From the NCBI GenBank assembly GCA_964618725.1, contig CAZUBK010000001.1, forward strand, positions 196,908-260,907: 64,000 nt of DNA, read 5' to 3'. Below are positions 11,896-43,196 of the stretch, one piece after another. Made by a program: the position numbers and the translations under genes. Under the pieces are notes generated by a model that was not told where the DNA came from, made no database searches, and saw only the letters and a program-made list of their open reading frames with translations. Positions within the stretch are counted from its first letter, which is position 1. Every line of letters begins with the position of its first letter. Origin of the DNA: an uncultured Pseudomonadales bacterium (GTDB taxonomy: Bacteria > Patescibacteriota > Microgenomatia > UBA1400 > Chazhemtobacteraceae).

Positions 11896-13323
11896 TTAAT
11901 GTGACTCGATAAAAGAATCGATCGTGTCACACACATATTCTATCTGCTTAGCAGTAATGCCGGGATGTAATCCTATCCAGATGGCATTTTGCAAAAGGTG
12001 GTTCGAGTTGGAGAGACTACCTATTTGGCGATGTTTGATATCTTGATATGCTGGCTGATGAAGCAGATTGCCGCCAAAAATTCGTCGAGTAGCAACTTTG
12101 TGGGTTTCTAGATGATTGATCAGATCGGTCGAATTGAAATGCTGATCGGGTCGAAGATTCAGAACATAGCCAAAAGGAGAGGGATTGATATTGGTGGGGA
12201 CCTTAATGGGGAAAAAGAGATGGTCGTATTTTTCTAAACGTTGACGGAAGATGGCATAGTTTCTCCTTCTTGTAACTATGAAATTGGCGACCTTATCTAT
12301 TTGAGCTAGCCCTATGGCTGATTGCATTTCGGTGAGTCTCATATTGTAGCCAATTTCGGAGTAGATGTATTTATGATCGTAACCTAGTGGCATTTTGCCA
12401 AGTTGCCAAGCAAAACGCTTCTGACAGGTATTGTCGTCTCCTGGCTTGCACCAACAGTCTCGTCCCCAATCGCGGAAGGTGTTAATTGTACGATAGAGAA
12501 GTGCATTGTTAGTGAAAATGACGCCTCCCTCACCAGTAGTAATCTGATGAGCAGGAAAGAAACTGACAGTACTAATATCGCCGAAAGAGGTGATGGGTTT
12601 GTTGTCGATGGTTGCTCCCAGAGCATCACAGGAATCTTCGATGAACCAGAGGTTATGTTTTTTGGCAAGGTTACGAATTTTATCGGCTTGAAATGGGAAA
12701 CCAAGGGTATGAGCGAGCATAATGGCTTTTGTCTTTGGCGTAATCGCCTCTTCGATTGATTTCGGAGAGACGTTTAGAGTATGAACATCGACGTCAACAA
12801 AAACGGGGACTGCCCTATTTTGAATAATGGGATTGACAGTGGTAGGGAAGCCGCAGGCGGCAGTGATTACTTCATCTCCCGGCTTGATTTGTCGCTCTTG
12901 GAGCTTTTTTGAAGTGAGAGCGCTGAAGGCTAAGAGATTGGCGCTAGATCCCGAGACAGTTAAAGAGACAAATTGGTTACCTGTAAATTGGCGAAGTTTC
13001 TGAGAAAATTGAGCGGTCTTAACTCCTTCCGTAAGCCAGAAATCCAGGGCGACATCAGCCATGTTAATCATCTCCTGCTCGTCGTAGGTTGCCCCTGAGG
13101 CTTTAATGTAAGTCATACCAGGAGTGAACTGGGTATTGGCGTGATAATCAGAATGAAATTTTTTAACAAGATCAAAAATCCTTTTCTTATCTTTGTTTTT
13201 CTGATGGTTAAGATTTAGGGCAGTAGGCTCTTGAGTGCTGACAGTGACAACAAAAAACTCTAACAGCAGATGTAGGAGGAAATAGAAAGGTTTACCTAGA
13301 TAAATTAATAGCCGAGCGAACAT
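11896..13323 (-). CDS. rfbH: CDP-6-deoxy-D-glycero-L-threo-4-hexulose 3-dehydrase (E1; RfbH/DdhC/AscC family, DegT-like fold). The N-terminal roughly 40 aa may be an extension or a mis-start.
   Basis: SGSSANLLA, KPGDEVITAACGFPTTVNP, FRDWGRDCWCKPGDDNTCQKRF and GYDHKYIYS match RfbH blocks almost residue for residue. The PLP-lysine position is His (SFFPAHQITTGEGG), as in E1 and ColD PMP-dependent dehydrases. Confidence 0.85.
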   Translation of the reverse strand: MFARLLIYLGKPFYFLLHLLLEFFVVTVSTQEPTALNLNHQKNKDKKRIFDLVKKFHSDYHANTQFTPGMTYIKASGATYDEQEMINMADVALDFWLTEGVKTAQFSQKLRQFTGNQFVSLTVSGSSANLLAFSALTSKKLQERQIKPGDEVITAACGFPTTVNPIIQNRAVPVFVDVDVHTLNVSPKSIEEAITPKTKAIMLAHTLGFPFQADKIRNLAKKHNLWFIEDSCDALGATIDNKPITSFGDISTVSFFPAHQITTGEGGVIFTNNALLYRTINTFRDWGRDCWCKPGDDNTCQKRFAWQLGKMPLGYDHKYIYSEIGYNMRLTEMQSAIGLAQIDKVANFIVTRRRNYAIFRQRLEKYDHLFFPIKVPTNINPSPFGYVLNLRPDQHFNSTDLINHLETHKVATRRIFGGNLLHQPAYQDIKHRQIGSLSNSNHLLQNAIWIGLHPGITAKQIEYVCDTIDSFIESH

Positions 13324-15882: not shown

Positions 15883-17619
15883 TTATTGTTCTAGGTAATA
15901 AAGATTTTTCCCTATTGATTGTGCCTGGCATACAAGTGGCTCCTCGGCACAAGTTTTGGTTGTGGCGAACCAGAAAGAAGACTGTGGGGTGGGAGCAGAG
16001 GCATACGTACAATTAATGTTAAAGATGGCCATAAATTGCTCATTCGTACTGGCATGCCAAATGCCTTGGTCAAGAATGTAAAGTGTGTGGGGACCGGTAT
16101 CGGCACAGAAGGCAATGATATCTTGATTCTGAGGATGTCTATCTTTGATCCAATCATAAATATTGGTTTTTCCCCTGGCGTAGGCTATCTCCTGGGGCGA
16201 AAGGTAATGCCAGATACTGTAAGTGGTCTTCATGCCTGAAATGAAGTAAAAGAGGGCAAAGAATGAGACAAGAAGGGTATACCAGCTGAGTCTAGTCGCC
16301 GGTAGAACGATTAAGAGAGTAAACAAGATCTGTAAGTAGAAGAAGTAGCGAGGCAAGAAACCTGAATAAAAACGAAGTAGGAATAATTCCAAGGTAATAC
16401 CTACTAAAAGAAAGATTGCAAAGTAGCGTTGTTTTTTGTTACCGAACCTAAATATCAAGCCGACAGAGGCGATCCAAAGGACAGATATGGGCAGTTTGAT
16501 GGTAATTTGATTGATAATGGTAGGGAGACTTCGAAGTGTGACCGGAACAGTCCAGCCGTCAAAGAAGGTTTCTGTGGCGGCACAAAAAGCCAGTTTACAG
16601 GGGAAGAAAAAGGGGTAGACAGGGTTACCGGTGAAGTAAAAGTTGTTTAGATACCAATATCCACCAGAAATAAATAGAATTGCAAATAACAAGATCATGT
16701 TCCTTGCTTTAAACACTTCCAGTAAAATCGCCTGATTCTTTTTGTAAAAGAGAAATCCAAGCGTAATGAGTCCGTAGGTGAGTAGGACAGAGAGTCCGGT
16801 GAATTTCGTTGAGATAGAAAGACCTAAAAAGAAGACAGCGGTTAACAGGATAGAAGACTTCTTGTTTTGATAAAAGTCAAAGAGACTGACAATTCCTAAG
16901 GCAATGAAGGATGCGAGAGAGTAATCAGTATAGCCTGACGCTCCTATGATCAGGAGATCCTTCATCAAGTAAAGATAAATGACAACAAATAGATTGGCTG
17001 ACCAGTGACCAAAGTGATACTTAGTGACTGCATAGATACTGGAGATGCTTGTCAGAAAGATAAGGAAGTGGAGGAGACGAGCCGGCGAGTAAGATCTGGC
17101 TAAAGAAAAAACTAGGGCAAGGAAGGTTTCAATAAATCGGGGAACATAGGTATAGATTTCTGAGTTACTACCAAAGCCCCAGGTGTTCTGATTGAGTAGT
17201 TGGAATGGAGAAATAAAGTGATAACGGACTTCGTCGGTAAGATAAGGGGGGAGAGAACTTTTGACAAACAAGGCAGGGAAAAGAGTAAGTATGGTTAAGG
17301 TAAGAAATGGATTTTTTAGGTAAAAAGAAAAGAGACTTTGATAATCTTTGTTTTTCAGATAGCTTGCTAAGCAGATCAAAGCAGGGAGGGTCAAACTTAA
17401 GGCGACGTATATCGGCTTGAAAGGTAAAAAGAAATGAAGGAGGTACCAAATAAAAACAATAGGAGCCAGACTATATAACCAGTAAACTGGACGATAGAGA
17501 CTACTTGATTTAAAAAGATGCCGATTAATGTAACTTCCAACGATATCTAGAGATAGGAAGATAAGAACGGTGATGAGGAGTAGAAGGGGGGTTAATGGCT
17601 TGAAATAATCAATTAGCAT
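15883..17619 (-). CDS. GT-C fold polytopic membrane glycosyltransferase (PMT/ArnT-like). It has about 11-13 TM helices plus a C-terminal soluble domain.
   Basis: Extremely hydrophobic N-terminal 430 aa, an acidic first-loop motif LTDEVRYHF, and a C-terminal roughly 140 aa hydrophilic domain. It is a tandem paralog of 17609..19504. Confidence 0.65.
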   Translation of the reverse strand: MLIDYFKPLTPLLLLITVLIFLSLDIVGSYINRHLFKSSSLYRPVYWLYSLAPIVFIWYLLHFFLPFKPIYVALSLTLPALICLASYLKNKDYQSLFSFYLKNPFLTLTILTLFPALFVKSSLPPYLTDEVRYHFISPFQLLNQNTWGFGSNSEIYTYVPRFIETFLALVFSLARSYSPARLLHFLIFLTSISSIYAVTKYHFGHWSANLFVVIYLYLMKDLLIIGASGYTDYSLASFIALGIVSLFDFYQNKKSSILLTAVFFLGLSISTKFTGLSVLLTYGLITLGFLFYKKNQAILLEVFKARNMILLFAILFISGGYWYLNNFYFTGNPVYPFFFPCKLAFCAATETFFDGWTVPVTLRSLPTIINQITIKLPISVLWIASVGLIFRFGNKKQRYFAIFLLVGITLELFLLRFYSGFLPRYFFYLQILFTLLIVLPATRLSWYTLLVSFFALFYFISGMKTTYSIWHYLSPQEIAYARGKTNIYDWIKDRHPQNQDIIAFCADTGPHTLYILDQGIWHASTNEQFMAIFNINCTYASAPTPQSSFWFATTKTCAEEPLVCQAQSIGKNLYYLEQ

Positions 17620-19504
17620 TTGAGAGTGATACTTTTTCCCAATCGAAAATGTAAAGACCAGGAATTTCGGTTGGCTGAGAATTGCAGACTATCTTATTGT
17701 TTATGTATCTTAGATTAAGGGCGGAATCGGTTTCGGTTGGATGCCACTTTTCAAGTGGTGTAGTGCGACAGGGATTGAGTGAGACTAGATTGAATTTCTG
17801 CTTATCACTAATGAGTTGCTTGAGAGCCAGTTCTGGATCTCCTATCGTTGTAGGGGTTGGAACAATGGCACACTTATTAAGGAAGGCATTAAAGCGACCT
17901 TCGTAGCGATACCAGGTAATATCAGGATCATAAAAAGTGATGGGAATCTCACCTTTTATCTTTGTTCGGTCACACCAGCGGATTAGGTTAGTAGTTTCAG
18001 GAAAAATAAAGGCAGTCCAATCGTAGACGTTTTCTTTACCTAAGGCATAATTAATCTCGTGGGGATTAAGCATGTCGAAGCTGTAGGTCCGAAAAGTTGA
18101 AAGAGGAACTTGTTTAAGTAAGAAGGCAATCAAAGCAAGGATCAGAAGAAGACGAATTGGCACAATCTTTTGGGAGACAAACTGATTCTTGCCAAGAATA
18201 ATGGAAACAAGCAAAAAACAAAGAGTTTGAAGATAAATAAAGTAGCGGGGGAGATATCCGGAAAGATACTTAATGACAACAAAATCAAAGATAATGGCGA
18301 GAACAATGAACCAGGGAACAAATTTAGATTTACTCTTCAATTGAGTGATGAGAAAAAGACTGGCTCCTAAAGCGACTGCCATAGATTTACTGCCGGAGAG
18401 GATGTAATAAATTATCATGGGAAGAGTTTGTAGGTCGACAGGGTAAGTCCAGCCAGAGCCAAAGTAGCTCTTCATAGCCAAGCAAGTGGAGGCAAAGCGG
18501 AAACAAGGAAGGACAAATGGAAAAATGGGGTTACCAGTGTAAAGAAGATTTTTGAGATACCAAAAGCCTCCTAGAACAATAAAGATAGTGAGCGAAGTAA
18601 AGACCTGTTGTCTCAGTGTAGATATTAGGCGCCGAGTGAATAAAAGATAAAGACCAGTTAGTGAAGCGTAAGTTAAAAAGGGAATGAGCGAGTTATAGCG
18701 AGTCCCCAAGGCCAGAGCCCAGAAGGCAACTGGCAGGCTAAGGTCTACCTTTTTCTTAAGCAAATCGATGGTGGCAAGAATTCCTAAGAAAACGAATGAA
18801 TTAGAACCGATGTCGACGTATCCTGAAGTGGCCTGAGGAAGTAGATCACCAGGGATATAGAAACTCACCAAAATAAAGACTCCGGCGGAAAGTAGGCCGT
18901 AGTTTTTCTTGATCCAAGTATAGGAAAAATACATTGCAGAGAAAAAGATAAAGAAATGAAACAAACGAGCAATTGAATAGGTTTGCGTCAAACTGAACAC
19001 TAGAGAATACATCGTGTCAAGATTTTTGGGAATATTTTCGTAGAAACCGTCGTTTAGAGTGCGAGTCGTCAGATGGTTATAGCCCCAGGGAGAGGTGTAG
19101 TGATAACTGAGCTCATCCCACTGGTAGGAAGGTAACGAGGCCTTAACAAAAATGGCTGGTAAAAGGGGAAGAATAAGGATTAGGGGAACGGCCAGGCCTC
19201 GCAAGGCAGAAGTGACTTGATGCATCTTAAAGCTCCTTGTATGTGGCGGGAGAAAAACAATAGAGAAGCCTAATAATGAGAGTGTGACATTTCTGGTGTT
19301 AGGAACAACAAAGAAGCTGAGCAAAAACCAGAAGAAGATAAAAGTGGTCATGCCAAATATCCAATAGAGCGGACGATAGTTTTTAGGAGACTTCAGGAGT
19401 CGATTGTTAAAGGCAACACCAATAGAATCGAAGAGGACAAACAAAAAAACAAATATTGCTAAATTCTTTAGGTTAAGTGGGGAGTAGAAATCATTGATAC
19501 TCAT
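17609..19504 (-). CDS. GT-C fold polytopic membrane glycosyltransferase (paralog of the previous gene).
   Basis: Same architecture, first-loop motif YQWDELSYHY, and matching conserved blocks (FVKASLP, SGYLPRYF). Confidence 0.65.
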   Translation of the reverse strand: MSINDFYSPLNLKNLAIFVFLFVLFDSIGVAFNNRLLKSPKNYRPLYWIFGMTTFIFFWFLLSFFVVPNTRNVTLSLLGFSIVFLPPHTRSFKMHQVTSALRGLAVPLILILPLLPAIFVKASLPSYQWDELSYHYTSPWGYNHLTTRTLNDGFYENIPKNLDTMYSLVFSLTQTYSIARLFHFFIFFSAMYFSYTWIKKNYGLLSAGVFILVSFYIPGDLLPQATSGYVDIGSNSFVFLGILATIDLLKKKVDLSLPVAFWALALGTRYNSLIPFLTYASLTGLYLLFTRRLISTLRQQVFTSLTIFIVLGGFWYLKNLLYTGNPIFPFVLPCFRFASTCLAMKSYFGSGWTYPVDLQTLPMIIYYILSGSKSMAVALGASLFLITQLKSKSKFVPWFIVLAIIFDFVVIKYLSGYLPRYFIYLQTLCFLLVSIILGKNQFVSQKIVPIRLLLILALIAFLLKQVPLSTFRTYSFDMLNPHEINYALGKENVYDWTAFIFPETTNLIRWCDRTKIKGEIPITFYDPDITWYRYEGRFNAFLNKCAIVPTPTTIGDPELALKQLISDKQKFNLVSLNPCRTTPLEKWHPTETDSALNLRYINNKIVCNSQPTEIPGLYIFDWEKVSLSNAN

Positions 19505-20226
19505 TTTGCTTTGTGAGTGATGATTAAGTGTCCCGGAATAAGGTCGAACATAAGGCTTTGTTGAACTCTAACAGGTTTAATCAATTTGAACCGACTAAAG
19601 TCATAGGAAGAGAGAGGATTCAGATTGTCGATGGAGGCCCAGAAGGGCATCTTAAAGATTAAACAGAGCTTACGAAAAAACTCAAGGGGCAACCAATGCA
19701 AGAAAAGAAAACTAGTATGTGGTTCATAAGGACAAAATCTGTCTGGTGTAGTAACAAAGATATTCTTGCCAACCCGAAGGAGTTCGTTCAGGAAAAACTC
19801 TTGATTCTGGTAATCACCAACATGTTCAAGGGTTGCCCAAGAGACCACAATATCAAAGGTGTCTTTCTTGAAAGGGAGTGGCTTTCCAGGGACCACTTTG
19901 ATAACTTTTATCCTTGGAAAAAGAAGGCACAGCTCCTTTGAGTCTTCGATAGTCACTGCGGTGAGTTTCCTTGGATATGGATAGAGTTTCTCAAATAAAT
20001 TGGAATCACCAAGTAAGGTCAGCGAAGTTGCGCCGACATCTAGAACAAGTGTCTTGGCTGTGGGGTGAAAAAGTTTCTTGAAGTATTTAAATTGCTTGGT
20101 ACGTGTATCAACAGATAACCGACTCAAAAAACGTTTGAGAGGGGTAGCAGTAACAGTGACATCGTGAGTCCAGCGCTTATCTTTTTTCATAAGTGATATA
20201 TTAGCGGCGGGCATAAAGAATGCCAA
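19501..20226 (-). CDS. Class I SAM-dependent methyltransferase.
   Basis: Motif I VLDVGATS and the post-motif DIVVSWATLEHV are present, and the protein is about 241 aa. Confidence 0.6.
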   Translation of the reverse strand: MAFFMPAANISLMKKDKRWTHDVTVTATPLKRFLSRLSVDTRTKQFKYFKKLFHPTAKTLVLDVGATSLTLLGDSNLFEKLYPYPRKLTAVTIEDSKELCLLFPRIKVIKVVPGKPLPFKKDTFDIVVSWATLEHVGDYQNQEFFLNELLRVGKNIFVTTPDRFCPYEPHTSFLFLHWLPLEFFRKLCLIFKMPFWASIDNLNPLSSYDFSRFKLIKPVRVQQSLMFDLIPGHLIITHKAK

Positions 20227-20971
20227 TGCAGGTTTCTAAAGGATGAGGGACAACACGGACTGAGTAGCCTTGACTTCTGAGAAACTTGATCAGTTGATGA
20301 TGATTGTGTTTGGTTAGATGGTCATGATATTCCAGAACGATATTATCTATCTTTTTCAGCAGAGATGGCGGTATTGAAAAAAAGATCTCATACTCAGCAC
20401 CTTCACAGTCTAACTTAAGAAGGTCGCATTTTTTAATGTCATGTTGAATGAAGATGTTATTCAGAGTATCAGTATGAATACTGGTTTTTTTGAAGAAACG
20501 GCCGGTTGGGAAAAGGCTACCCAGGCCGCTGGCCTTGCTAACGAAGAAATTGATTTTTCCTTTGGTGGCGGCAACACCTAAGCAAAAAGCCGTGATGCTT
20601 TTGATGTTGTTTATCTTAGTGTTGTGGGCTAATAATTTGAAAGTTGATGGACATGGTTCATAGGCGAGAATCTTGGTATTGGGATATCTTAGGGCCATGA
20701 GTATAGAGAAAGTGCCGATGTTGGCGCCAACATCAATGATGACTTTTGGATTTTTTAGGGGAATATGATATTGATTCTCGACGTAAATTTCCTGGATAGT
20801 GAGCACGTCAAGTAAATGAGAGACCTTGAACTCTGCGCCGCTTCTTAATTTCATCGTTGGTGAGTTGATCAATTTAAGAGGGAAAAGAGGGACAAGATAC
20901 CAATTGCTAATACTTCTGGCAATGGGGATTATTTGTAAGTGGTATAAAATCAATCGCTTGAGTGGGTGCAT
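20201..20971 (-). CDS. FkbM-family methyltransferase.
   Basis: VIIDVGANIGTFSILMA...LAYEPCPSTFKLL matches the FkbM signature. Confidence 0.75.
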   Translation of the reverse strand: MHPLKRLILYHLQIIPIARSISNWYLVPLFPLKLINSPTMKLRSGAEFKVSHLLDVLTIQEIYVENQYHIPLKNPKVIIDVGANIGTFSILMALRYPNTKILAYEPCPSTFKLLAHNTKINNIKSITAFCLGVAATKGKINFFVSKASGLGSLFPTGRFFKKTSIHTDTLNNIFIQHDIKKCDLLKLDCEGAEYEIFFSIPPSLLKKIDNIVLEYHDHLTKHNHHQLIKFLRSQGYSVRVVPHPLETCIGILYARR

Positions 20972-20972: not shown

Positions 20973-22031
20973 TTAGTCAGGGAGTCGATTTACTAAATGA
21001 GTTTTAATCGTTTCGATTAGAAAGGTCCAGATAAAGATTAAAGTGTTGATACTAATTAAAATCATTTTGGTACCCAGACGAAAATCGGGAAGGATAAGAA
21101 CGGCAATGCCATTGAGAAGAGTAAAGATGATGACAAGAGGAACCAACCAATTATTGTTGAGGATTCTGGATACCGAGTTGTGATGTTTCTCGATGGCAAA
21201 GCCCAGGAACTGAAGGGCCAGCCAACTGAGCCAAAGAGTAATTCCGACTAAGAGAAATAGACTGGTGAGAGCAAAGCTGACTGAGAGAGTTAAAAAGGCC
21301 AGTAGAAAAGCCACAGCCATAGTAATCAAAAGACTTTCAGGTTTAAGAAGGATGATCGCTTTAAGGTGACGCCAACCGTCTGACCATCGTGACAAATGCG
21401 GAGGTCGATTTCTTTTGTCTTTGAGGAAACGGATCGGTACCTCAAGATATTTGCCTTTCCTTAGAGCAGTCTTTAAGAGCAGTTCGCTAGCCCACTCCAT
21501 TCCTGAATTTCTCATATTGAGTTGCTTATAAAAGCTTTTTCTAATAAGACGCATCCCAGAGTTACAATCAGTGGTAGGAATTTGATAAAGGAGGCGGATA
21601 AGTTGGGTAAGAGCAGGAGTTCCGAAATAACGATTAAGGAGAGGCATGGCATCTTTTTGGATCGACCCATTAAGGCGAGAGCCGAGAACCATGTCTGGTT
21701 TGTATTTCAGTTTTGCGGCAAAGCGACTCAAATTTGAAAAGGGATAACTTAAATCGGCGTCAGCAAATAGAACGTAATCACCCCGGCTTTTGAGAATTCC
21801 CCAATGGAGGGCCGCGCCATAACCGCGAACAGGAACGTGAACAATCCGTACAAACTTGATTTCTTTCAGAATTTCTAATGTCCCATCGATGCTGCCATTG
21901 TCGGCAACGATAACCTCGAATTGATTGCCAAAGACTTTCTTTCCGTTTGTATAGGCGTCGGTGACGCTTTGCTTGATTGTATGTGATTCATTCAGACAGG
22001 GAATGACAATGCTTAGTGTCAGCTTCTTCAT
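20973..22031 (-). CDS. GT2 polyprenol-phosphate sugar synthase (ArnC/GtrB/Dpm1-like) with a C-terminal membrane anchor.
   Basis: The GT2 head (LSIVIPCLNESHTI...VADNGSIDGT, ADADLS) is followed by 2-4 TM helices. This is the architecture of lipid-linked sugar donors used by GT-C enzymes. Confidence 0.8.
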   Translation of the reverse strand: MKKLTLSIVIPCLNESHTIKQSVTDAYTNGKKVFGNQFEVIVADNGSIDGTLEILKEIKFVRIVHVPVRGYGAALHWGILKSRGDYVLFADADLSYPFSNLSRFAAKLKYKPDMVLGSRLNGSIQKDAMPLLNRYFGTPALTQLIRLLYQIPTTDCNSGMRLIRKSFYKQLNMRNSGMEWASELLLKTALRKGKYLEVPIRFLKDKRNRPPHLSRWSDGWRHLKAIILLKPESLLITMAVAFLLAFLTLSVSFALTSLFLLVGITLWLSWLALQFLGFAIEKHHNSVSRILNNNWLVPLVIIFTLLNGIAVLILPDFRLGTKMILISINTLIFIWTFLIETIKTHLVNRLPD

Positions 22032-22111
22032 GAGGCAATTCTAATTCAATATAGTAAAAAAGGAAATTAAACAGTAATGGGTATTGTGAGCAGATTAATT
22101 GTGGGAGTAAG

Positions 22112-22312
22112 ATGAGTGAAGTGAAAATTCAAGTTAATCAAAAAAAGTGTGTTGCTTGTGGGGCCTGTGAAGAATTGGCCCCAGAAGTATTTGTGGTCGG
22201 AGTGACTGTCGAGATCAAAAAAGATGCTGACATTGAAAATGAGGAGATCAAAGAGAAAGTTAGGTTAGCTGCTGAGGTATGTCCACAGAAAGTTATTTCT
22301 TTAAAAGAGTAA
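22112..22312 (+). CDS. Small single-cluster ferredoxin (4Fe-4S or 3Fe-4S).
   Basis: CVACGACEE...CPQ is a Cys-x2-Cys-x2-Cys...Cys-Pro pattern. It is 66 aa and is directly followed by a radical SAM gene (TAA then ATG). Confidence 0.7.
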   Translation: MSEVKIQVNQKKCVACGACEELAPEVFVVGVTVEIKKDADIENEEIKEKVRLAAEVCPQKVISLKE

Positions 22313-23785
22313 ATGAAGAAACCTAGAATAACGCTTGTCTATCCTTCTTATTCCTCTATGATCGGGGCGAGCAAGTTTCGTCGATTTGGTGTTTATGCCG
22401 GAATGGGGAAAATTCCGGAGCGTCCAAATATTGGTCTTGGTTATATTTCTCAAGCATTGATGTCGGCCGGATATGATCACGACTTTGTTGACATGAATCT
22501 CCTTGACTCATACAGCGAATTCAAAAAAAGAACGAAAAAGTATGCTCCTGACATTATTGGTTTGATGATGGTGACGATTGGATATCTGAAAGGATATAAA
22601 TTTATCAGACGAATTCGAAAGGATTTTCCCAAAACGAAGATAATAGTTGGAGGACCACATGTAGGATTGAGGCTGGATGCGCTGCTTAGGGAATGTCCGG
22701 AGATCGATGTGGGATTTATCTCGGAGGCGGAAAAAAGCCTAATCGCGTATCTAAGCAATGGGGCAAGGGCAGATGGAATAGATGGTGTCGTTTATAGGAA
22801 AGGAAGGAAGATTGTATTTACTCCCCCCACACTTGAGCAGGATTTAGGTAAAATAGACTTCCCGAAATATGAAAAGTTTGATCTGTCAAAATATTCAGGC
22901 ATTGGACTTTACACTACTAGGGGGTGTCCATTTCGGTGTATTTTTTGTAGTGTTGAGTCATATCGGAGGAAAATAGTGAGACAAAGGCCGCTTGAGTCGG
23001 TCATGGAAGAAATAAGATACTGGTATGAAAGGGGGCACCGTTTATTTACAATCGAGGATGACAACTTTACTTTCGATATGAAGCGGACGTGGAAACTTTG
23101 TAGACAACTGGAAAAAGAGAAATTGCCAGATATCCAGTTCGCTTTGGCCCAGGGAGCAAGAGCTGATCGAATTAACAAACGTCTGCTCATGAAAATGTAT
23201 CAAGTTGGTTTTAAGTACATCACGATTGCTGTCGAAGCTGGAAATAACAGGATGCTTCGTAACTTAAAAAAAGGTGAAAAGATAGAGACGATTAAGAGGA
23301 ATATAAAGAATGCCTGCGATATTGGCTACGAAGTGAGACTTCTGTTTGTCATTGGCACGCCTGGTGAAACATGGAAGGACATTGAGGATTCACTTAAGTT
23401 AGCGTGTAGTTATCCAATTATGTATTGCCGATTCAACAATCTCTTGCCGATTCCAGGAACAGCACTCTATGATTGGGTGATCAAAGAGAAGCTATATTTA
23501 GCTCCACCAGAAAAGTTTCTTAACAACTATGATCTGGACTGTACCGAGCCATTTTACGAAACAAAAGAGCTTTCGGCGGAGGAGCGGAGACGGGCGATTG
23601 TTATGTCGGACAGAATAAATCAAAAACTGTTTTACCGATATCTAATAAAGAAACTTGGAATTCTAGGTCCAGCTAAATACCCACTCTCTTTTCTGGCATC
23701 TAGAAAGGCAACCCAAACATTGATTGGAGGAAACCCATGGCTATACAACATGGCCCTGAAGATGAGAGTTATGCTGAGCGGGTAG
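22313..23785 (+). CDS. B12-binding domain radical SAM enzyme (class B-like), probably a sugar-tailoring methyltransferase or epimerase.
   Basis: An N-terminal Rossmann-like B12-binding region precedes the CPFRCIFC radical SAM cysteine triad, and the protein is 490 aa. Confidence 0.85.
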   Translation: MKKPRITLVYPSYSSMIGASKFRRFGVYAGMGKIPERPNIGLGYISQALMSAGYDHDFVDMNLLDSYSEFKKRTKKYAPDIIGLMMVTIGYLKGYKFIRRIRKDFPKTKIIVGGPHVGLRLDALLRECPEIDVGFISEAEKSLIAYLSNGARADGIDGVVYRKGRKIVFTPPTLEQDLGKIDFPKYEKFDLSKYSGIGLYTTRGCPFRCIFCSVESYRRKIVRQRPLESVMEEIRYWYERGHRLFTIEDDNFTFDMKRTWKLCRQLEKEKLPDIQFALAQGARADRINKRLLMKMYQVGFKYITIAVEAGNNRMLRNLKKGEKIETIKRNIKNACDIGYEVRLLFVIGTPGETWKDIEDSLKLACSYPIMYCRFNNLLPIPGTALYDWVIKEKLYLAPPEKFLNNYDLDCTEPFYETKELSAEERRRAIVMSDRINQKLFYRYLIKKLGILGPAKYPLSFLASRKATQTLIGGNPWLYNMALKMRVMLSG

Positions 23786-23814: not shown

Positions 23815-24630
23815 CTATGTTTTTGACTTAAATGAGCCAATGTAACGTAGAAATAGGTGATAAAAGACTCCCTTTTTGAATTTTGATGGGAGCCGTTTGG
23901 CAAGAAGTCGATATGATGCCCACTTCAACTTTTGATTAATGGGGTTTTCTGTTGAACTTCCTGGTGAGTAGCGGAATGTTAGGAGTTTTTTGTGGACCAC
24001 TTTTATTTGATTTTGTTTTAAACAATGAACAACTAGATCCCAATCCTCACCCCCACGTCGATAATCATAGTTAAATTTAAAACTAGTGAGTGCACTTTTT
24101 CGAAACAGCATATGTGAAAGCTGGCATAGGTAGAAAGCACTAGGAAAAAGATGGTCATTATTAAAACGAGTCGCAAAAAGCGATAGATCGCGGAGTAACA
24201 TAAGAGGCCATAGCTTAATTTTTCTTCTGAGGTAAAATCCTGATTCAAAATATGGATTTGAAAAACATATAGCAGCAGCTGCCTTTGAATCTTGTCGTAG
24301 AGCCTTGATCATTTCTTTTAGAAAAGTTGGCTGCAATTGATCATCCGAGTCGAGAAATAAAACGAATTCTGATTTGGTAAGATCAAGTCCAGTTTGCCTA
24401 TCTGCGCCAGGACCTTCTAATTCTTTAGTCTTAAAATAGTTCAGATTTTTATTATGCTTTTGGAGGACTTGTTTTGTTTTAGCGTTGTATCCTTCGTCAA
24501 CAATAATTATCTGAACTTTTTCTTTGGGAATTCCTTTCTGACGATTGACTGACTTAATGGCAGCGATGGTAAAATCCAGTCTCCTGAAGTGAGGAGTGAT
24601 AATTGTGACAAGCGAATCTTTAATGCGCAT
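23815..24630 (-). CDS. GT2-family glycosyltransferase.
   Basis: VTIITPHFRR...IIVDEGYN and FLDSDDQL motifs. Confidence 0.8.
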   Translation of the reverse strand: MRIKDSLVTIITPHFRRLDFTIAAIKSVNRQKGIPKEKVQIIIVDEGYNAKTKQVLQKHNKNLNYFKTKELEGPGADRQTGLDLTKSEFVLFLDSDDQLQPTFLKEMIKALRQDSKAAAAICFSNPYFESGFYLRRKIKLWPLMLLRDLSLFATRFNNDHLFPSAFYLCQLSHMLFRKSALTSFKFNYDYRRGGEDWDLVVHCLKQNQIKVVHKKLLTFRYSPGSSTENPINQKLKWASYRLLAKRLPSKFKKGVFYHLFLRYIGSFKSKT

Positions 24631-25488: not shown

Positions 25489-26433
25489 TTACTTAATCAA
25501 TTCAGGATGAGCTTGTAAATACTCTATTGTTTTAATTATGCCGTCCTTGATGGAGATTTTTGGCGTCCAGCCAAGTGATTTAAGATTTGTTGTATCGAGA
25601 TGAACGAAATCATTGTCGCCTTTCCAACCACGCTTACCGCCTAAATATTTCTTTGGAACTTTTGAACCACTCGTTTCCAAAATAGTATTGACTATTTCAT
25701 CAACGGTTAATATTTCATCGTGGCCTAGATTGTAGACATTGATTTTTTCCTTTGATTTTTCAATTATAGTAAAGATCGCGCTTAAGCCATCTTTTACATA
25801 TAAGGATGATTTTTGGGGAGTGCCGTCGGATAGTAACTCTAGTTCCTTAGGTTCCACCTTTAACTTTTTTAAAAGATCGACAATAATCCCATGAGTGTAT
25901 CGCTCGCCGATCCAGGATACGAAACGAAAAATATAGATATCCCAATCATAATAACTAGAGTATGCTTGGATATATGACTCACACGAAGCTTTGGTGGCGC
26001 CGTAGAGTGAAGTCGGAGTAAATGGATAGTTTTCTGGCGTTGGGTGAACTTTAGCGTCACCGTAAACAGATGAAGTCGAGGCAAAACCGATTTTTTTAAC
26101 ATTGCTTCTAAACATTGCTTCTAAAACATTGTGGGTGCAAGTTAGATTCTGTTGATGATCAATAAAATGATCGTTAAAACCTGAACGGACATCAGCATGA
26201 GCGGCAAGATGGAAAACAAAGTCGATTCCTTCACAGCTTTTAGTAATTAGGTCAAGATCTAAAAGATCGCCTTTAATTAGCTTGAAGTTTGATTTTTGAA
26301 GGTTATGTTCAACGAACAACTCTCTTCCTGTAGAGAAATTGTCGAATACTGTTACGTGATTTCCCTGCTCAAGAAGATAATCTACGATATTACTGCCTAT
26401 AAAACCCGCGCCTCCCGTTACTAGATATTTCAT
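25489..26433 (-). CDS. NAD-dependent nucleotide-sugar epimerase/dehydratase (UDP-hexose or UDP-HexNAc 4-epimerase-like). The track's 5' extension to 26562 is rejected.
   Basis: MKYLVTGGAGFIGSN is at the true start, giving an ATGA overlap with the upstream Gfo gene. YGATKASCE (YxxxK) is present. Confidence 0.8.
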   Translation of the reverse strand: MKYLVTGGAGFIGSNIVDYLLEQGNHVTVFDNFSTGRELFVEHNLQKSNFKLIKGDLLDLDLITKSCEGIDFVFHLAAHADVRSGFNDHFIDHQQNLTCTHNVLEAMFRSNVKKIGFASTSSVYGDAKVHPTPENYPFTPTSLYGATKASCESYIQAYSSYYDWDIYIFRFVSWIGERYTHGIIVDLLKKLKVEPKELELLSDGTPQKSSLYVKDGLSAIFTIIEKSKEKINVYNLGHDEILTVDEIVNTILETSGSKVPKKYLGGKRGWKGDNDFVHLDTTNLKSLGWTPKISIKDGIIKTIEYLQAHPELIK

Positions 26434-27416
26434 GATTTTGAGTTGTTTGACTTGTAAACAATATCCACAGTTTTCAAAACATACGCCGCTTCTTGAATAC
26501 TTTTGTCTGAATAGTCCTTTTTTTTGATTCTTCGAAAGAATTCCTCTGTTTCTCGCTGCCATGACAAGTCTTCTGTCTCAGTAAGATCGTGTTCTTCTAC
26601 TATTGGTGGACCCATTTCTGGTTTCATCTTGTAGATAGTTAGTACTTCCGGGCCATAACTTCTACCTAATCCATTGATTTGCAACTTGGCAGTTTTAAGC
26701 ATTATTTCAAAGATGAAAATGTTTTTCCATTCCAAGCAAGTCACTGATAAATGAGCTATCTGGTTTTTGTCATTATTCAAGACAAAAAAAGCGGAATCCT
26801 CTAATTTTGCGTCCCAGAATAGATTTCTGGTAACTCCTTGCGCGTGCAGCATGGGGCCAGCAAAGAAGTTAGTCAAGTCAATTAAATGAGACCCTTGATC
26901 CAGTAGTTCACCACCGCCTGCAATTTCGGGATCAAATCTCCATTCTTTTTCATAACCTAATCTAGCACCGTGTCCATAGCGAGCACGAATAAAAAGGACT
27001 GGTCCAAATTCATTAGAATCGACAATTTGTTTGGCTTTGATGATTGCCGGATGAAAGCGGTGGTTGTAACCAAACATTACCACTGATTTCTGTTTTCTTG
27101 AGGCGGAGATGATCTTTTGGAGATCTTTTAGATTTCGAGCGCCAGGTTTTTCGAGTAAGACATGCTTACCTTGATTAATTGCTTCTTTTGCTATCGGAGA
27201 CAGAAGGTTGTTTGTTGTAGAGATGATTACCACGTCAGTTTTTGGATCTTTTACCACTTCATGCCAGTCTGTGGAAACAGTCGCTTTGAATTGCTCAGCT
27301 AATTGCGAGGCTCTTTCTTTATTGATATCACAGACTGTAACTAATTTGGCCCCTCTGGGTAGAGCAGAAGCTCGTTTGTTACCGATTAATCCTGCGCCGA
27401 TAATTGCAACATTCAT
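26430..27416 (-). CDS. Gfo/Idh/MocA-family NAD-dependent oxidoreductase. It is WbpB-like, a candidate nucleotide-sugar 3-dehydrogenase.
   Basis: MNVAIIGAGLIGNKRASAL N-terminal Rossmann motif and an EKP-type segment. Confidence 0.75.
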   Translation of the reverse strand: MNVAIIGAGLIGNKRASALPRGAKLVTVCDINKERASQLAEQFKATVSTDWHEVVKDPKTDVVIISTTNNLLSPIAKEAINQGKHVLLEKPGARNLKDLQKIISASRKQKSVVMFGYNHRFHPAIIKAKQIVDSNEFGPVLFIRARYGHGARLGYEKEWRFDPEIAGGGELLDQGSHLIDLTNFFAGPMLHAQGVTRNLFWDAKLEDSAFFVLNNDKNQIAHLSVTCLEWKNIFIFEIMLKTAKLQINGLGRSYGPEVLTIYKMKPEMGPPIVEEHDLTETEDLSWQRETEEFFRRIKKKDYSDKSIQEAAYVLKTVDIVYKSNNSKS

Positions 27417-30410: not shown

Positions 30411-31007
30411 ATGGACAAAGCAATATTTCTTGACCGTGATGGGATAATAAATGAGTTTGTTTATTATCATGATATTGATACAATAGATGCGCCAAGAGGC
30501 GCTTCGCAGGTAAAGTTGGTACACGGAATAAGTCAATTGATTAAGGCAGTGAGAGAAATGGGGTTTAAAACTATAATTGCTTCAAATCAACCAGGGATGG
30601 CTTTGGGGAAATTAACTCGTGAATCTTTTGAGGGAATAACACAAAGAATTAAAAACTTGTTGGGTGAAGAGGGTGCCATATTAGACAACGAATATTACTG
30701 TACACACCATCCTTTTGGAATACATGAGTCTTTGGCGATACAATGCGATTGTCGCAAACCAGGAATTGGTATGTTTAAAAAGGCGGAGGATGAATTGGGA
30801 ATTGATCTGAAAAAGTCGTGGTTTATTGGCGATGGATTAACTGATGTCAAGGCAGGCTTCACAGCTGGCTGTAAGACGATTCTACGAGGTTTCCCTGATC
30901 AAACAGGATTTTTGGCTTTAGTAGAAAAGGAACTTGGAGACATTAAACCTGACTACATAATCCGAAAATTGCCTGAGGCAATAGAGATTATTCGCTCATA
31001 TGAATAG
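30411..31007 (+). CDS. gmhB: D-glycero-D-manno-heptose 1,7-bisphosphate phosphatase (HAD-IIIA, GmhB family).
   Basis: FLDRDGIIN (DxDGxxN HAD motif I), the roughly 190 aa size and its position beside the heptose kinase and nucleotidyltransferase. Confidence 0.75.
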   Translation: MDKAIFLDRDGIINEFVYYHDIDTIDAPRGASQVKLVHGISQLIKAVREMGFKTIIASNQPGMALGKLTRESFEGITQRIKNLLGEEGAILDNEYYCTHHPFGIHESLAIQCDCRKPGIGMFKKAEDELGIDLKKSWFIGDGLTDVKAGFTAGCKTILRGFPDQTGFLALVEKELGDIKPDYIIRKLPEAIEIIRSYE

Positions 31008-31773
31008 TTTCCGAGACACCCAGGTGATAGTAGTCGCTGGAGGCAGGGGCACAAGGTTGGCACCTTTGACTGACACCGTTCCAAAACCTATGGTTGAGGT
31101 TGCCGGTAAGCCAATCTTGGAACACACGCTTAATCATTTTGCCTCTTTTGGATTTCGTAAATTCATTCTTTGCTTGTGCTATTTACCAGAAAAAATTGAG
31201 GATTATTTTGGCGACGGTAGTAAGTTTGGTTTGCAGATTGAATATGGTTATGAGGATCCTAATGAGCCTTTGGGATCAGCGGGAGCTGTTAGTCTAGTCG
31301 AGAAGCATATCTGTGGAAGTTTCTTTGTAACCTACGCAGATATTTTGCGTCATTTAGATTTGATAGATCTTTGGTCCTTCCATAAAGGAAATGGTGGGCT
31401 GGCAACCCTTGCCCTTCACTCTAGCCAAAGTATTTTACCTCGCAGTAAGATACTGTTTGATAAAAAGTCAAAGAAAATTGAAGGTTTTATTGAGCATCCT
31501 ACTCCAGATCAAGTGACGGAGAGACCAGTTTGGGCCAATGGTTCCCTTTATTTGTTTGAAAGAGAAATATTTGACCACCTTCCTTATGGCAAAAAATTTG
31601 ATTTCGGATCAGATATCTTTCCACTTTTACTTAAGGAAGGAAAATCTATATATGGTTATCCAAACGACGATTATTTAATTGACATCGGAACACTAGAAAA
31701 ATTGCATTTAGCAGAGGATGATATAAAATCAGGTAAATTGAAAACCTATGATTATAGTAAGAGCGCCTTTTAG
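31000..31773 (+). CDS. hddC: Sugar-1-phosphate nucleotidyltransferase. It is a probable D-glycero-alpha-D-manno-heptose-1-P guanylyltransferase (HddC).
   Basis: VVAGGRGTRLAPLTDTVPKPMV signature (G-x-G-T-R-L). It overlaps gmhB by 8 nt and hddA by 26 nt. Confidence 0.65.
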   Translation: MNSFRDTQVIVVAGGRGTRLAPLTDTVPKPMVEVAGKPILEHTLNHFASFGFRKFILCLCYLPEKIEDYFGDGSKFGLQIEYGYEDPNEPLGSAGAVSLVEKHICGSFFVTYADILRHLDLIDLWSFHKGNGGLATLALHSSQSILPRSKILFDKKSKKIEGFIEHPTPDQVTERPVWANGSLYLFEREIFDHLPYGKKFDFGSDIFPLLLKEGKSIYGYPNDDYLIDIGTLEKLHLAEDDIKSGKLKTYDYSKSAF

Positions 31774-32734
31774 AATCCCTCTTGGTGGTGGGGGCACTGA
31801 TTTACCATCCTATTATTCCAAATTTGGAGGAGAACTCGTTTCTGTGGGAATTGATAAATACATGTTAGTGATTGTTAATCGACCAATGGTAGATAAATTG
31901 ATAAGAGTGAAATACTCGAAGTCTGAAATGGTAGAAAGTGTCGATCAAATCCAGCATGAATTGGTCCGCGAATCACTAAAGCTTGTCAGAATAGAAGACA
32001 GTATAGAGATTTCTTCCATTGCTGATGTGCCATCGGGTACAGGGATGGGATCTTCAGGTAGTTATTTAGTGGCCTTATTGAAAGCTTTACATACTTTCAA
32101 TAGGGATGAAGCGACAGTTAAACAAATTGCTAATGAAGCCTGCATGATAGAAATCGAAAAGTTGGGGTCTCCTGTGGGAAAGCAAGATCAATATATGGCA
32201 GCATTTGGTGGTCTTACTAAATTAGTTATTGATAAAAAGGGTGTTGTTGAAGTGATTAGACCAGAATTACCTATGGGAACAATGAAAGATTTAGAAAGCA
32301 GTTTGTGTATCTTTTATACTGGGATCAGAAGGGAGAGTAAAGAAGTTCTAACTAAACAGAGTAAGGCTACTTCTGATGGTGATAAGCAAGTAATAGATAG
32401 TCTTCATTATATTAAAGAAATTGGTGGTGAAATCTACAAAGCGATCCTAAAAGGGAATATTCATAAATTTGGAGCACTGATGGATCTTCATTGGCAGCAC
32501 AAGAGAAAACTAGCAAGCAATGTAAGCAGTAGTGATATTGATCGATGGTATCAAGAAGGTAAATATGCGGGAGCTCTTGGCGGTAAGATCATGGGCGCAG
32601 GCGGTGGGGGATTTTTGATGTTTTGTTGTCCGGGAGACAAGACTGCCTTGCGTGCCGCCATGGCGAAACAAGGATTAAGAGAAATGTTTTTCAATTTTGA
32701 TTACGACGGTGTTAAGATTTTAGTTGATTTTTAG
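31748..32734 (+). CDS. hddA: GHMP-family kinase, a probable D-glycero-alpha-D-manno-heptose 7-phosphate kinase (HddA).
   Basis: PFRIPLGGGGTDLP (GHMP motif) and GMGSSGS ATP-binding motifs, with a heptose-pathway neighbourhood. Confidence 0.7.
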   Translation: MIIVRAPFRIPLGGGGTDLPSYYSKFGGELVSVGIDKYMLVIVNRPMVDKLIRVKYSKSEMVESVDQIQHELVRESLKLVRIEDSIEISSIADVPSGTGMGSSGSYLVALLKALHTFNRDEATVKQIANEACMIEIEKLGSPVGKQDQYMAAFGGLTKLVIDKKGVVEVIRPELPMGTMKDLESSLCIFYTGIRRESKEVLTKQSKATSDGDKQVIDSLHYIKEIGGEIYKAILKGNIHKFGALMDLHWQHKRKLASNVSSSDIDRWYQEGKYAGALGGKIMGAGGGGFLMFCCPGDKTALRAAMAKQGLREMFFNFDYDGVKILVDF

Positions 32735-32741
32735 GAACTGA

Positions 32742-33863
32742 ATGAAAAAGGAGTTAAAGGTTTATATTGCCGGTACGGGGGCTGTATTTGAAGAAAAAAT
32801 GGTGAGAACACTAGCTATTTTAGGCTCAGAACAAAATAGATACTTGTTGGATATTGATATTGAACGCTTAATGAAAGCACCTGATGTCGGTGTAAAAATT
32901 GTAGGGGATTGTTTGAATCCACCAATTCGAGAAGTGCCTGAAAACGAGAGAGCGGAGACAACAGCGGTAATAGCGACACCTGATCATTTGGGAAGTATCA
33001 TCGGATTTATTGAAAGAGGCGTGCGACGTTTTATCGTTGAGAAACCATTGGTCAACAACAATCAGGAGGTAGAACAACTCAAAAAACTGATCACTCAGTA
33101 TCCAGATTTGCAAATATATGCTTTGGATTTTTATATTCAGAAATGTACTCCTTTATTGTTACTTGCTGGAACAATTTCTCCAGAAGACCCTAGATCAAAC
33201 TGGGTGAGGTTCCAAAACAACGAAGTTGTACCAGCGGAAATATTTGGGTCTATTGATAGTTTCATTGGAAAAATTGAAGGAATATCCGTGACGATTGTAG
33301 AAGGCGGAAAATTGGGAGTGCCTGATGTTGATGGTCGTTCTTGGCTTGAAAGGGACAAAAAGAGAGGTGGGGTACTGCTAGATTTAGCTATTCATGCAAT
33401 AGCTCCTCTGGTATCTTGCGGGTTGGTTACTTCTAAAAATGTGAATGTCATCCATGCAGAAAGAAAAAATTTCGGTGAAGATAGACGTTCTTTTATAGCA
33501 GCGCCTTCTGAAATGCCGGAAATGTACGCTCATGCCCTGCTGAGCTTGTTGACCGAAGATGCAAGAAATGTACCTATCGAGCTAACTGTTGGAAAGATAT
33601 TCCAAGACGGTGGTATATGGGAAATGGTGATTCGTGGTTCACAGGGAAACATAACAATTGGACTTCGTAGTGGACAACATTTAAGTGTTCAGTCAAATGG
33701 TTCGGCTGACTTTCAACTCAGCTTGGATAAAACAAATGATCCGTATGCATTGGCATTTCAAGAAGCAAAGATGTATTTTGAAGGTCGTCCGGGATTTGAC
33801 GGGAATCTTAAGGCAGCCCTCGAATCGATCGCGATTATAGAAGAGATTAAGCGCGTTTCTTAG
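32742..33863 (+). CDS. Gfo/Idh/MocA-like Rossmann oxidoreductase, a candidate GDP-heptose-modifying enzyme.
   Basis: IATPDHLGSIIGFIERGVRRFIVEKPL resembles the Gfo/Idh/MocA consensus around the EKP motif. It is the last gene of the operon. Confidence 0.45.
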   Translation: MKKELKVYIAGTGAVFEEKMVRTLAILGSEQNRYLLDIDIERLMKAPDVGVKIVGDCLNPPIREVPENERAETTAVIATPDHLGSIIGFIERGVRRFIVEKPLVNNNQEVEQLKKLITQYPDLQIYALDFYIQKCTPLLLLAGTISPEDPRSNWVRFQNNEVVPAEIFGSIDSFIGKIEGISVTIVEGGKLGVPDVDGRSWLERDKKRGGVLLDLAIHAIAPLVSCGLVTSKNVNVIHAERKNFGEDRRSFIAAPSEMPEMYAHALLSLLTEDARNVPIELTVGKIFQDGGIWEMVIRGSQGNITIGLRSGQHLSVQSNGSADFQLSLDKTNDPYALAFQEAKMYFEGRPGFDGNLKAALESIAIIEEIKRVS

Positions 33864-33870
33864 AAAGGTT

Positions 33871-34638
33871 CTAAATCAGTTTTAAATCCGGATTGTCTTT
33901 GACTTTTTCGAAGGCGGCGTCGAACTGGGCAATGGTTTCCAGGGCGCGGGTAGTAACCATAATTTTTTCGAGAATCTTTGGTGGGACTGTAACTATATCC
34001 GCGCCAAGACTAAAGGCTTCGATTATCTGATGCGGCTCTCGGACGCTGCCAATAATTATTTTCGTATCGAGTCGGTGATTGGCGAGATAGGTAATGGTGG
34101 CACTAAGAACGTCTTGAGGTTCTTGGCTCTCACCTCTTATAGAACTCTCCATAGCCCGTCCCCAGAATAGACTAATATAAGTACTGCCTTCTCCCGCATA
34201 GCGGCGACTGGCTTCGGCGGCTAACATCAACTGAGCGGTATTAATGCCGATAGTGGCATTGGTTTGGATGCCTCTTTGAGCCAATCTAGCAATTACTTTT
34301 AGGCCTTTTGTGTCATCAGGGATAATAGGAACTTTTATGACTGTATTGGTGGGAAAAAGTTCGTGGTAGGCAACAGCTAGGTCAACCATTTCCTCGGCTT
34401 CCATCTTACTGTCAGGAAGCTCGATTGAAATAGGGAAACCAGGGCCGACTATCTCACACATTTTGGTTAAGTGTCCAGGGATATCATAGATGCCTTCCTT
34501 TTCGAAAAGAATCAGTTGATTAGTGGTAATCCCCCCGATCACTTCCTGCCAGTTCCTAATCTGATTGAGGTCGCCCGAGTCAAGAAACCAACCAGATCGG
34601 TTCATGGGCGATCGGTTCTCTGGAGTAGTCTTAAGCAT
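33871..34638 (-). CDS. Transaldolase / fructose-6-phosphate aldolase family (TalC/FSA-type short transaldolase).
   Basis: FLDSGDL...GGITTNQ (D...TTNP-type active-site blocks) and the roughly 255 aa size. Confidence 0.65.
   Translation of the reverse strand: MLKTTPENRSPMNRSGWFLDSGDLNQIRNWQEVIGGITTNQLILFEKEGIYDIPGHLTKMCEIVGPGFPISIELPDSKMEAEEMVDLAVAYHELFPTNTVIKVPIIPDDTKGLKVIARLAQRGIQTNATIGINTAQLMLAAEASRRYAGEGSTYISLFWGRAMESSIRGESQEPQDVLSATITYLANHRLDTKIIIGSVREPHQIIEAFSLGADIVTVPPKILEKIMVTTRALETIAQFDAAFEKVKDNPDLKLI

Positions 34639-40985: not shown

Positions 40986-43196
<2,211 letters not shown>

Follow-up and report, generated by a model that had tools for sequence, protein, structure and literature searches.

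A putative sugar-modifying module of a cobalamin-type radical SAM enzyme and its partner ferredoxin in a surface polysaccharide locus

In antibiotic pathways, GenK, GenD1, MoeK5 and Fom3 are class B C-methyltransferases, i.e. cobalamin-type radical S-adenosylmethionine (SAM) enzymes, that act on sugars or sugar-nucleotide-linked substrates. Few enzymes are as hard to reconstitute as those of class B, and what reduces them in the cell is usually not known. The subject of this analysis is a pair of genes in a 64-kb stretch of contig CAZUBK010000001.1 (hereafter the window, that is, the whole stretch of DNA analyzed), one encoding a ferredoxin of 66 amino acids (22112..22312, plus strand) and the other a class B radical SAM (rSAM) enzyme of 490 amino acids (22313..23785, plus strand). 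Both open reading frames (ORFs) start with ATG, and the TAA stop of the ferredoxin gene (22310-22312) directly abuts the ATG of the rSAM gene (22313-22315); this arrangement, reported in a preliminary description of the window, is recovered exactly in the ORF list and in the sequence itself. Quite probably, the rSAM protein acts in a glycan pathway and has a ferredoxin of its own as electron donor. The fuller reading, namely, a ferredoxin-rSAM module with a dedicated reductant that modifies a sugar in the course of surface polysaccharide synthesis, with C-methylation as the favored reaction, is proposed with moderate confidence, and C-methylation taken by itself is a tentative assignment.

The rSAM enzyme consists of a Rossmann-type B12-binding domain at residues 38-144 (PF02310, 50.6 bits against a cutoff of 32.1; 22424..22744, plus strand) followed by the radical SAM core at residues 200-364 (Pfam PF04055, 78.9 bits against a cutoff of 29.5), which carries the CxxxCxxC cluster motif in the form C205-P-F-R-C209-I-F-C212 (22925..22948, plus strand; codons TGT CCA TTT CGG TGT ATT TTT TGT). 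In an alignment of 78 sequences (A1), the three cysteines C205, C209 and C212 are invariant and, within the B12-binding domain, so are D60 and G113-G114, with P115-H116 nearly so. The AlphaFold model, built from 78 homologues, has a pLDDT of 92.9 and a pTM of 0.91, and the C-terminal 70 residues in this model are all-helical. A Foldseek search of the Protein Data Bank (PDB) with the model returns at the top only class B enzymes, namely, MgmA (9CCB), TsrM, AprD4, CysS, OxsB and TokK (E-values of 1e-19 to 1e-23, TM-scores of 0.6-0.7), with the MiaB/RimO methylthiotransferases next. The motif, the PF04055 match and the agreement of the model with the Foldseek matches place the protein in the radical SAM superfamily, and the N-terminal Rossmann-type B12-binding domain ahead of the rSAM core places it in class B. 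The Foldseek result, obtained with a predicted structure, and the sequence and profile searches of the PDB confirm class B membership and leave the type of reaction unseparated. Thus, the domain calls and the CPFRCIFC motif of the preliminary description are borne out by Pfam and by the sequence, and, in the subfamily classification with radical SAM profiles that it had proposed, no curated subfamily claims the enzyme. Judged by sequence, the protein is a class B rSAM enzyme of an uncharacterized clade associated with glycan loci.

When the family profile is used to search the PDB, its N-terminal part can be aligned with domains known to bind cobalamin, those of OxsB, CysS, MgmA and TokK, whereas the alignment of AprD4 to the profile begins only at position 168, from the rSAM core onward. 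AprD4 is cobalamin-independent, so that the presence of the domain alone does not guarantee the use of cobalamin; the alignment with true cobalamin domains, and not with that of AprD4, indirectly favors genuine cobalamin binding.

To describe the relatives of the enzyme, homologues at 57-68% identity are denoted tier 1 and the next relatives, at 42% identity or less, tier 2; labels L001-L050 and JGI identifiers stand for homologue loci, and P numbers for homologue proteins. Tier 1 comprises ~40 proteins that fall into one cluster at 50% identity, within a wider radiation of 2100 representative clusters (E<=1e-30). Ten tier-1 loci, the window included, were inspected, along with three tier-2 loci (L047, L048 and L020). 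A metagenome scan added no tier-1 locus of full length; apart from a single fragment at 60% identity (L028), its matches are more distant. The named tier-1 source is a 'Microgenomates group bacterium', and the tier-2 names include Nitrospirae, Candidatus Scalindua and Omnitrophota; going by the single named close homologue, the source lineage of the window may belong to the Candidate Phyla Radiation.

The 66-amino acid protein matches Fer4_13 (Pfam PF13370, 37.6 bits against a cutoff of 24.5) and contains the ligand set C13-x2-C16-x2-C19 ... C57-P58, which is that of the single-cluster [4Fe-4S] ferredoxins (CxxCxxC ... CP in about 60 amino acids). The four cysteines and the proline are invariant across six partner ferredoxins from homologous loci, which have otherwise diverged to 34-43% identity with all cluster ligands kept. 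A gene for such a CxxCxxC...CP mini-ferredoxin lies at most 10 bp from the rSAM gene in 9 of the 10 tier-1 loci, and the arrangement takes three forms: 5' of the rSAM gene on its own strand (the window, L001, L002, L018, where the original annotation had missed it, and JGI 3300072015), 3' of it on that strand (L049), and 3' of it in convergent orientation (L003, L017 and L050). No adjacent ferredoxin is found in any of ~40 relatives at 40% identity or less, and the contrast with the close loci indicates that the pairing exceeds chance. Because the adjacency is specific to the clade and outlasts both high divergence and three rearrangements, gene order provides strong evidence that the ferredoxin and the rSAM enzyme form a functional partnership.

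That the two genes are neighbors by accident, or that one of the ORFs is spurious, is hardly credible. The ferredoxin ORF is short, and a promoter scan of the region is at background level, but both ORFs have significant Pfam matches, the ferredoxin has a GGGAG ribosome-binding site, and the pairing persists despite divergence of the rSAM proteins (57-68% identity) and still greater divergence of the ferredoxins, which effectively refutes this explanation. A second alternative, that the ferredoxin chiefly serves another enzyme in the window and that its adjacency to the rSAM gene is secondary, is very improbable. The candidate recipient is the 475-amino acid 'DegT' protein encoded at 11896-13323 (minus strand), which is an RfbH/E1-type CDP-4-keto-6-deoxyglucose 3-dehydrase by virtue of passing the equivalog cutoff of NF011936 (611 bits against 423). 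RfbH/E1 is an Fe-S/PMP enzyme of 3,6-dideoxyhexose synthesis, the usual partner of which is the E3 reductase (FNR plus 2Fe-2S). Among the window ORFs with 150 amino acids or more, none is E3-like, and an FNR-like gene also occurs near DegT-family genes in L001, L002 and L018. The ferredoxin gene, however, abuts the rSAM gene and is 9 kb away from that of RfbH, and it still stands beside the rSAM gene in L017, L049, L050 and JGI 3300072015, the displayed flanks of which contain no RfbH or DegT gene; moreover, serving RfbH and serving the rSAM enzyme are not mutually exclusive.

In three loci, the module is adjoined by genes for a 229-amino acid FNR-like FAD/NAD(P)-binding protein and a NifS (Aminotran_5)/NifU_N pair (L001 1705-5158; L002 10932-13511; L018 8823-11398); the window has no such set. 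These loci would have a self-contained set, in which NAD(P)H feeds the reductase, the reductase the ferredoxin and the ferredoxin the rSAM enzyme, with Fe-S assembly included. There is a precedent in vitro, where ferredoxin, ferredoxin reductase and NADPH drive the class B enzyme BchE (PMC13598231). The dedicated electron donor posited in the preliminary description is supported by the way in which the ferredoxin follows the rSAM clade through its rearrangements and by the company of reductase and NifS/NifU genes.

The link to glycans is conserved beyond the window, in which nearly every annotated ORF is glycan-related. Polysaccharide clusters make up 8 of the 9 informative tier-1 loci (with Wzm/Wzt, GT2, GT4, PMT_2, DegT/FdtA, FkbM and heptose-pathway genes), and all three tier-2 loci, including that of Scalindua (L048), are clusters of Wzy, GT9, GT4, Bac_transf, DegT and deacetylase genes, without a ferredoxin. 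Furthermore, at 32-41% identity, rSAM domains homologous to the enzyme are fused to glycan enzymes: rSAM+GT4 (P0130, P0136), rSAM+GT2 (P0181), GT2+rSAM+Methyltransf_24 (P0216), GT56+rSAM+GT4 (P0211), rSAM+DegT (P0202) and rSAM+SAM-methyltransferase (P0146, P0182, P0206), the methyltransferases in the fusions being of the Methyltransf_23/11 and Methyltransf_24 types. On these comparisons, a role of the rSAM enzyme in glycan biosynthesis, together with a dedicated electron donor, appears well supported; the glycan role suggested earlier for the pair agrees with the glycan context of the close and second-tier clades and with the fusions to glycosyltransferases, DegT proteins and methyltransferases.

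Additional B12-binding rSAM paralogues (25-30% identity where measured) are encoded in the same glycan loci (L002 9466-10896; L049 11919-13343; L048 8475-9728; L020 10551-12086; and, by the gene calls, two further genes upstream in JGI 3300075153), whereas the window has only one such enzyme. The presence of several paralogues per locus hints at several radical tailoring steps per glycan.

Several observations weigh against the proposed reading. The pair is on the strand opposite to that of all its glycan neighbors in the window. In JGI 3300075153, the rSAM gene has no adjacent ferredoxin, and the gene calls leave no room for one beside it. In L050 (7001-8573), the pair lies among Cu-ATPase, HMA, DsbD, NUDIX, HD and cold-shock genes, a mostly non-glycan setting. 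Bacteria of the Candidate Phyla Radiation are usually unable to make cobalamin. The best NCBIfam scores belong to HpnJ and BchE, which are not methylases, and Foldseek scores AprD4 and the ring-contracting OxsB as high as the methylases, with overlapping E-values, the TM-score of AprD4 being among the highest (0.69 by query, 0.75 by target).

The gene order in L050 shows that the two genes travel as a unit independent of glycan genes, and this locus is also one of the reasons to consider a substrate other than a carbohydrate, such as a lipid (the polyprenyl carrier or one of the membrane), a surface protein that carries glycans, or an acyl, amino-acid or phosphonate group attached to the glycan. 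Class B enzymes are known to modify lipids (HpnP, HpnR and the ladderane-associated family, at 60-79 bits in NCBIfam) and proteins (MgmA, the best PDB match), and the predicted all-helical C-terminus of the enzyme fits such a substrate as well. Nevertheless, a non-carbohydrate substrate is improbable given the prevalence of glycan clusters among both tiers of loci and the nature of the fusion partners, which are glycosyltransferases and a sugar aminotransferase; besides, the annotated window ORFs include no gene for PepM, lipid synthesis or a precursor of a ribosomally synthesized and post-translationally modified peptide. A phosphonate-tailoring role, as in Fom3 or PhpK, was considered separately and rejected, with no PepM-like gene among the annotated ORFs and a PhpK score of 76 bits against a cutoff of 600.

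The NCBIfam comparison bears on the type of reaction. As many as 38 families match the rSAM enzyme, all far under their cutoffs, so that no subfamily can be assigned. The top score is that of HpnJ (TIGR03471, 120.9 bits against 577.6), followed by BchE (TIGR02026, 115.1 bits against the equivalog cutoff of 481.35); the lower scores include those of ApyD (110 against 750), BzaD (106 against 450), the P-methylase family Sden_1168 (106 against 575), MgmA/QCMT (TIGR04014, 93.2 against 360), the AprD4 family of diol dehydratases (NF033070, 64 against 500, residues 198-391 only) and HpnR (TIGR04367, 60 against 650). The enzyme therefore does not fall into a family of the BchE or HpnP type, the placement that the preliminary description had named as speaking against a glycan role. 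Across both sequence and fold comparisons, the methylases (MgmA, TsrM, CysS, TokK) and the non-methylases (AprD4, OxsB) score about equally.

The same module could act in the same glycan pathway and carry out non-methylating chemistry on the sugar, for instance, AprD4-like dehydration or deoxygenation, HpnJ- or OxsB-like reactions in which a lipid-linked sugar has its ring contracted or is turned into a carbocycle, epimerization or oxidation. This alternative, which is rather unlikely but a serious competitor with more weight than the preceding ones, draws on the leading NCBIfam scores of HpnJ and BchE and on AprD4, which comes second among the PDB entries matched by the family profile (E = 3e-38, across the rSAM core and the C-terminal part) and has one of the highest TM-scores. 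In addition, the loci already carry several ordinary SAM methyltransferases (FkbM, Methyltransf_11/23), and the divergently transcribed glycosyltransferase next to the pair, which resembles polyprenyl-phosphate-sugar synthases, recalls the hopanoid pathway, in which, as is well established, the GT2 enzyme HpnI precedes HpnJ. Conversely, the N-terminal domain aligns with true cobalamin domains rather than that of AprD4, the scores of the named subfamilies are all too low to indicate any of these chemistries specifically, and most of the characterized class B enzymes are methylases (PMC12931638, in line with general knowledge). Because of this majority, and because MgmA, the best solved sequence relative, is a methylase too, C-methylation is the single most likely reaction. 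Of the sugar C-methylation or other radical modification that had been suggested for the pair, the glycan role stands, whereas C-methylation reflects just the prior expectation for class B, given the equal scores of methylases and non-methylases.

Under the favored reading, the ferredoxin would pass to the CxxxCxxC cluster the electron needed for cleaving SAM and, in the case of a methylase, might also hold the cobalamin in the right redox state. The resulting 5'-deoxyadenosyl radical would take a hydrogen from an unactivated sugar carbon, and the cobalamin would mediate the step following this abstraction; in the case of C-methylation, methylcobalamin would then donate its methyl to the substrate radical, as in GenK, Fom3 and TokK. 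Possible substrates include a nucleotide sugar, a polyprenyl-phosphate hexose made by the divergent glycosyltransferase, and the growing glycan.

The pair is flanked by two GT2 genes, both on the minus strand. One, denoted GT2_352 (352 amino acids; 20973..22031, PF00535), is divergent from the pair across a spacer of 80 bp (22032..22111), and the other, GT2_271 (271 amino acids; 23815..24630, PF00535, 80 bits), is convergent with it across a gap of 29 bp. Because these neighbors occupy the opposite strand, the ferredoxin and rSAM genes are a separate plus-strand unit that is not co-transcribed with them; the siting between GT2 genes described previously is real, and a shared operon is ruled out. 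A GGGAG Shine-Dalgarno-like site (22103-22107) lies 4 nt upstream of the ferredoxin ATG, whereas the rSAM start is preceded only by a weak AAGAG; together with the abutting stop and start codons, this pattern fits translational coupling. The promoter or promoters are presumably located within the 80-bp divergent spacer. A scan of the pair region for promoters and terminators finds no excess over the shuffled background, and the sigma-70 consensus sites in particular (7, compared with 5.1 +/- 1.9 in shuffles) are not above chance. The GC content is flat across the region (0.39-0.42), so that base composition gives no sign that the pair was inserted recently from a foreign source.

The best NCBIfam matches of GT2_352 are AglJ, DPhHxTase (Dol-P-hexose transferase) and PpgS, all below cutoff, a profile resembling that of polyprenyl-phosphate hexose transferases. 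The same divergent position is held in L017 by an orthologue with 62% identity and in L049 by a GT2 of 349 amino acids; GT2_271 has a 30%-identical relative in the syntenic block of L017. Next to GT2_352, a minus-strand block (17609..20971) encoding a 631-amino acid protein, a Methyltransf_11 protein (241 amino acids) and an FkbM protein (256 amino acids), identified by Pfam and tblastn, is conserved with L017 in the same order (32, 47 and 44% identity, respectively), Wzm/Wzt being also common to the two loci; this block is likely to be part of the same glycan assembly line. The 631-amino acid protein (17609-19504, minus strand) and the adjacent 578-amino acid protein (15883-17619, minus strand) have no Pfam or NCBIfam match and resemble one 609-amino acid protein of L017 (32 and 29% identity, respectively), which suggests that the two are paralogues in tandem, of an unknown type of protein from glycan loci.

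Elsewhere in the window are genes for a NeuB-family synthase (757-1626, minus strand) and a CTP_transf_3 cytidylyltransferase of the CMP-sugar type (8734-9396, minus strand), and these suggest that a nonulosonic acid (of the sialic, legionaminic or pseudaminic type) is made and activated. The Wzm/Wzt ABC exporter (2216-4320, minus strand) includes a Wzt protein with the carbohydrate-binding Wzt_C domain. In characterized O-antigen systems, Wzt_C recognizes a chain-terminating cap, often methyl or phosphomethyl, and, by analogy, the methyltransferases of the window and possibly also the rSAM enzyme could build such a terminal cap. A set of NDP-heptose-like genes (30411-35254) encodes a GmhB-like HAD phosphatase, an HddC/ManC-like nucleotidyltransferase, an HddA-like GHMP kinase, a transaldolase/FSA and a GmhA-like SIS isomerase, all under the equivalog cutoffs. 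Because a heptose-like block also adjoins the rSAM-ferredoxin pair in L049 and JGI 3300072015, a heptose is a candidate substrate of the rSAM enzyme. Other genes of the window encode GT4, further GT2 proteins, epimerases/dehydratases, a hexapeptide acyltransferase, FkbM and Methyltransf_11 proteins, a UDP-sugar dehydrogenase, a GFO/IDH/MocA oxidoreductase and short-chain dehydrogenases/reductases; hopanoid and bacteriochlorophyll genes are absent from the annotated window ORFs.

The distal part of the window (40966-62026) accumulates genes for membrane glycosyltransferases of the GT-C type, with seven PMT_2 matches, a PIG-V-like and a GT87-like protein (40966-42276, 46767-48548, 48533-49669, 50698-52026, 53567-55048, 55404-57092, 57089-58984, 58809-60428 and 60821-62026). 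This richness suggests extensive extracytoplasmic glycosylation from polyprenyl-phosphate sugars. Finally, the minus-strand ORFs 25489-26562 and 26430-27416 share 133 nt. In the former (357 amino acids), the Epimerase domain begins only at residue 44-47, so that translation probably starts ~40 codons further downstream, the overlap being due to the selection of the longest possible ORF.

Full-text literature searches found no description of a class B rSAM enzyme from a glycan locus, and sugars, glycans and ferredoxins all go unmentioned in a review from 2026 on B12-dependent radical SAM enzymes (PMC12931638). A literature match in Arcobacter was discarded as it concerns an unrelated QHAmDH maturase. 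The rarity in glycan loci, as initially asserted, holds for the characterized systems but not for the wider radiation, given its 2100 clusters and the fact that every second-tier locus examined is a glycan cluster; with a radiation this large and the contexts that were sampled, these enzymes appear unstudied yet not rare in metagenomic glycan loci. It is conceivable, albeit somewhat doubtful, that they represent a large, uncharacterized radiation of cobalamin-type rSAM enzymes dedicated to tailoring surface polysaccharides, a subclade of which has its own electron-supply chain; such a radiation would extend over hundreds of 50%-identity clusters from the Candidate Phyla Radiation, Nitrospirae, Scalindua, Omnitrophota and archaea.

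If such a radiation exists, its enzymes would introduce a modification that catalogues of surface glycans do not yet include, such as a methylated unactivated sugar carbon or a rearranged sugar. For the subclade with its own ferredoxin, the genome itself would reveal which protein reduces a class B enzyme in vivo, making the enzyme unusually tractable in vitro. The clade that encodes the ferredoxin, in some members along with the reductase and Fe-S assembly genes, would then be a ready-made native reducing system. Should the substrate be a surface sugar, radical cobalamin chemistry would reach from antibiotic sugars (GenK, MoeK5, Fom3) to envelope glycans, unknown monosaccharides would be predicted in poorly studied lineages, and envelope biosynthesis would require cobalamin in organisms that are probably unable to make it. 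The fusion proteins and the conserved contexts supply concrete candidates for testing. The module is not startling to radical SAM specialists, but it is well defined, testable and equipped with a probable native reductant.

Among the described systems, HpnJ and BchE have the highest curated scores, yet these are 4-5 times under the equivalog cutoffs. The presumed reaction of HpnJ is the rearrangement of an amino sugar that a GT2 has built on a lipid, a setting that the GT2-rSAM neighborhood in the window resembles. AprD4 (PDB 6FD2), a 1,2-diol dehydratase that acts on the aminoglycoside paromamine and is thus also sugar-acting, ranks second among the profile matches, but its N-terminal domain fails to align with the rSAM family and, as is established, it is cobalamin-free. 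The best solved relative is MgmA/QCMT (PDB 9CCB; E = 1.2e-18 with the single sequence, 8.8e-42 with the family profile and 2.7e-23 in Foldseek), likewise a compact class B enzyme, both being about 450-490 amino acids long, with only ~20% identity between the two. MgmA, the methyl-coenzyme M reductase glutamine C-methyltransferase, has a protein substrate, comes from methanogens, lacks a partner ferredoxin and resides in another genomic context (PMC11796369). The presumed role of the ferredoxin in the pair has a counterpart in BchE, the turnover of which is supported in vitro by ferredoxin, ferredoxin reductase and NADPH (PMC13598231). From established knowledge rather than from these sources, the comparison with GenK and GenD1 (gentamicin), MoeK5 (moenomycin) and Fom3 (fosfomycin) rests on the shared N-terminal B12-binding domain and CxxxCxxC core, on the placement among sugar-tailoring and glycosyltransferase genes, and on the presumed radical attack on an unactivated sugar carbon. 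In contrast to these enzymes of antibiotic clusters, the enzyme described here is encoded in a surface polysaccharide cluster with Wzm/Wzt and many GT2 and GT-C genes, has an adjacent, apparently dedicated ferredoxin, and belongs to a clade without a characterized member.

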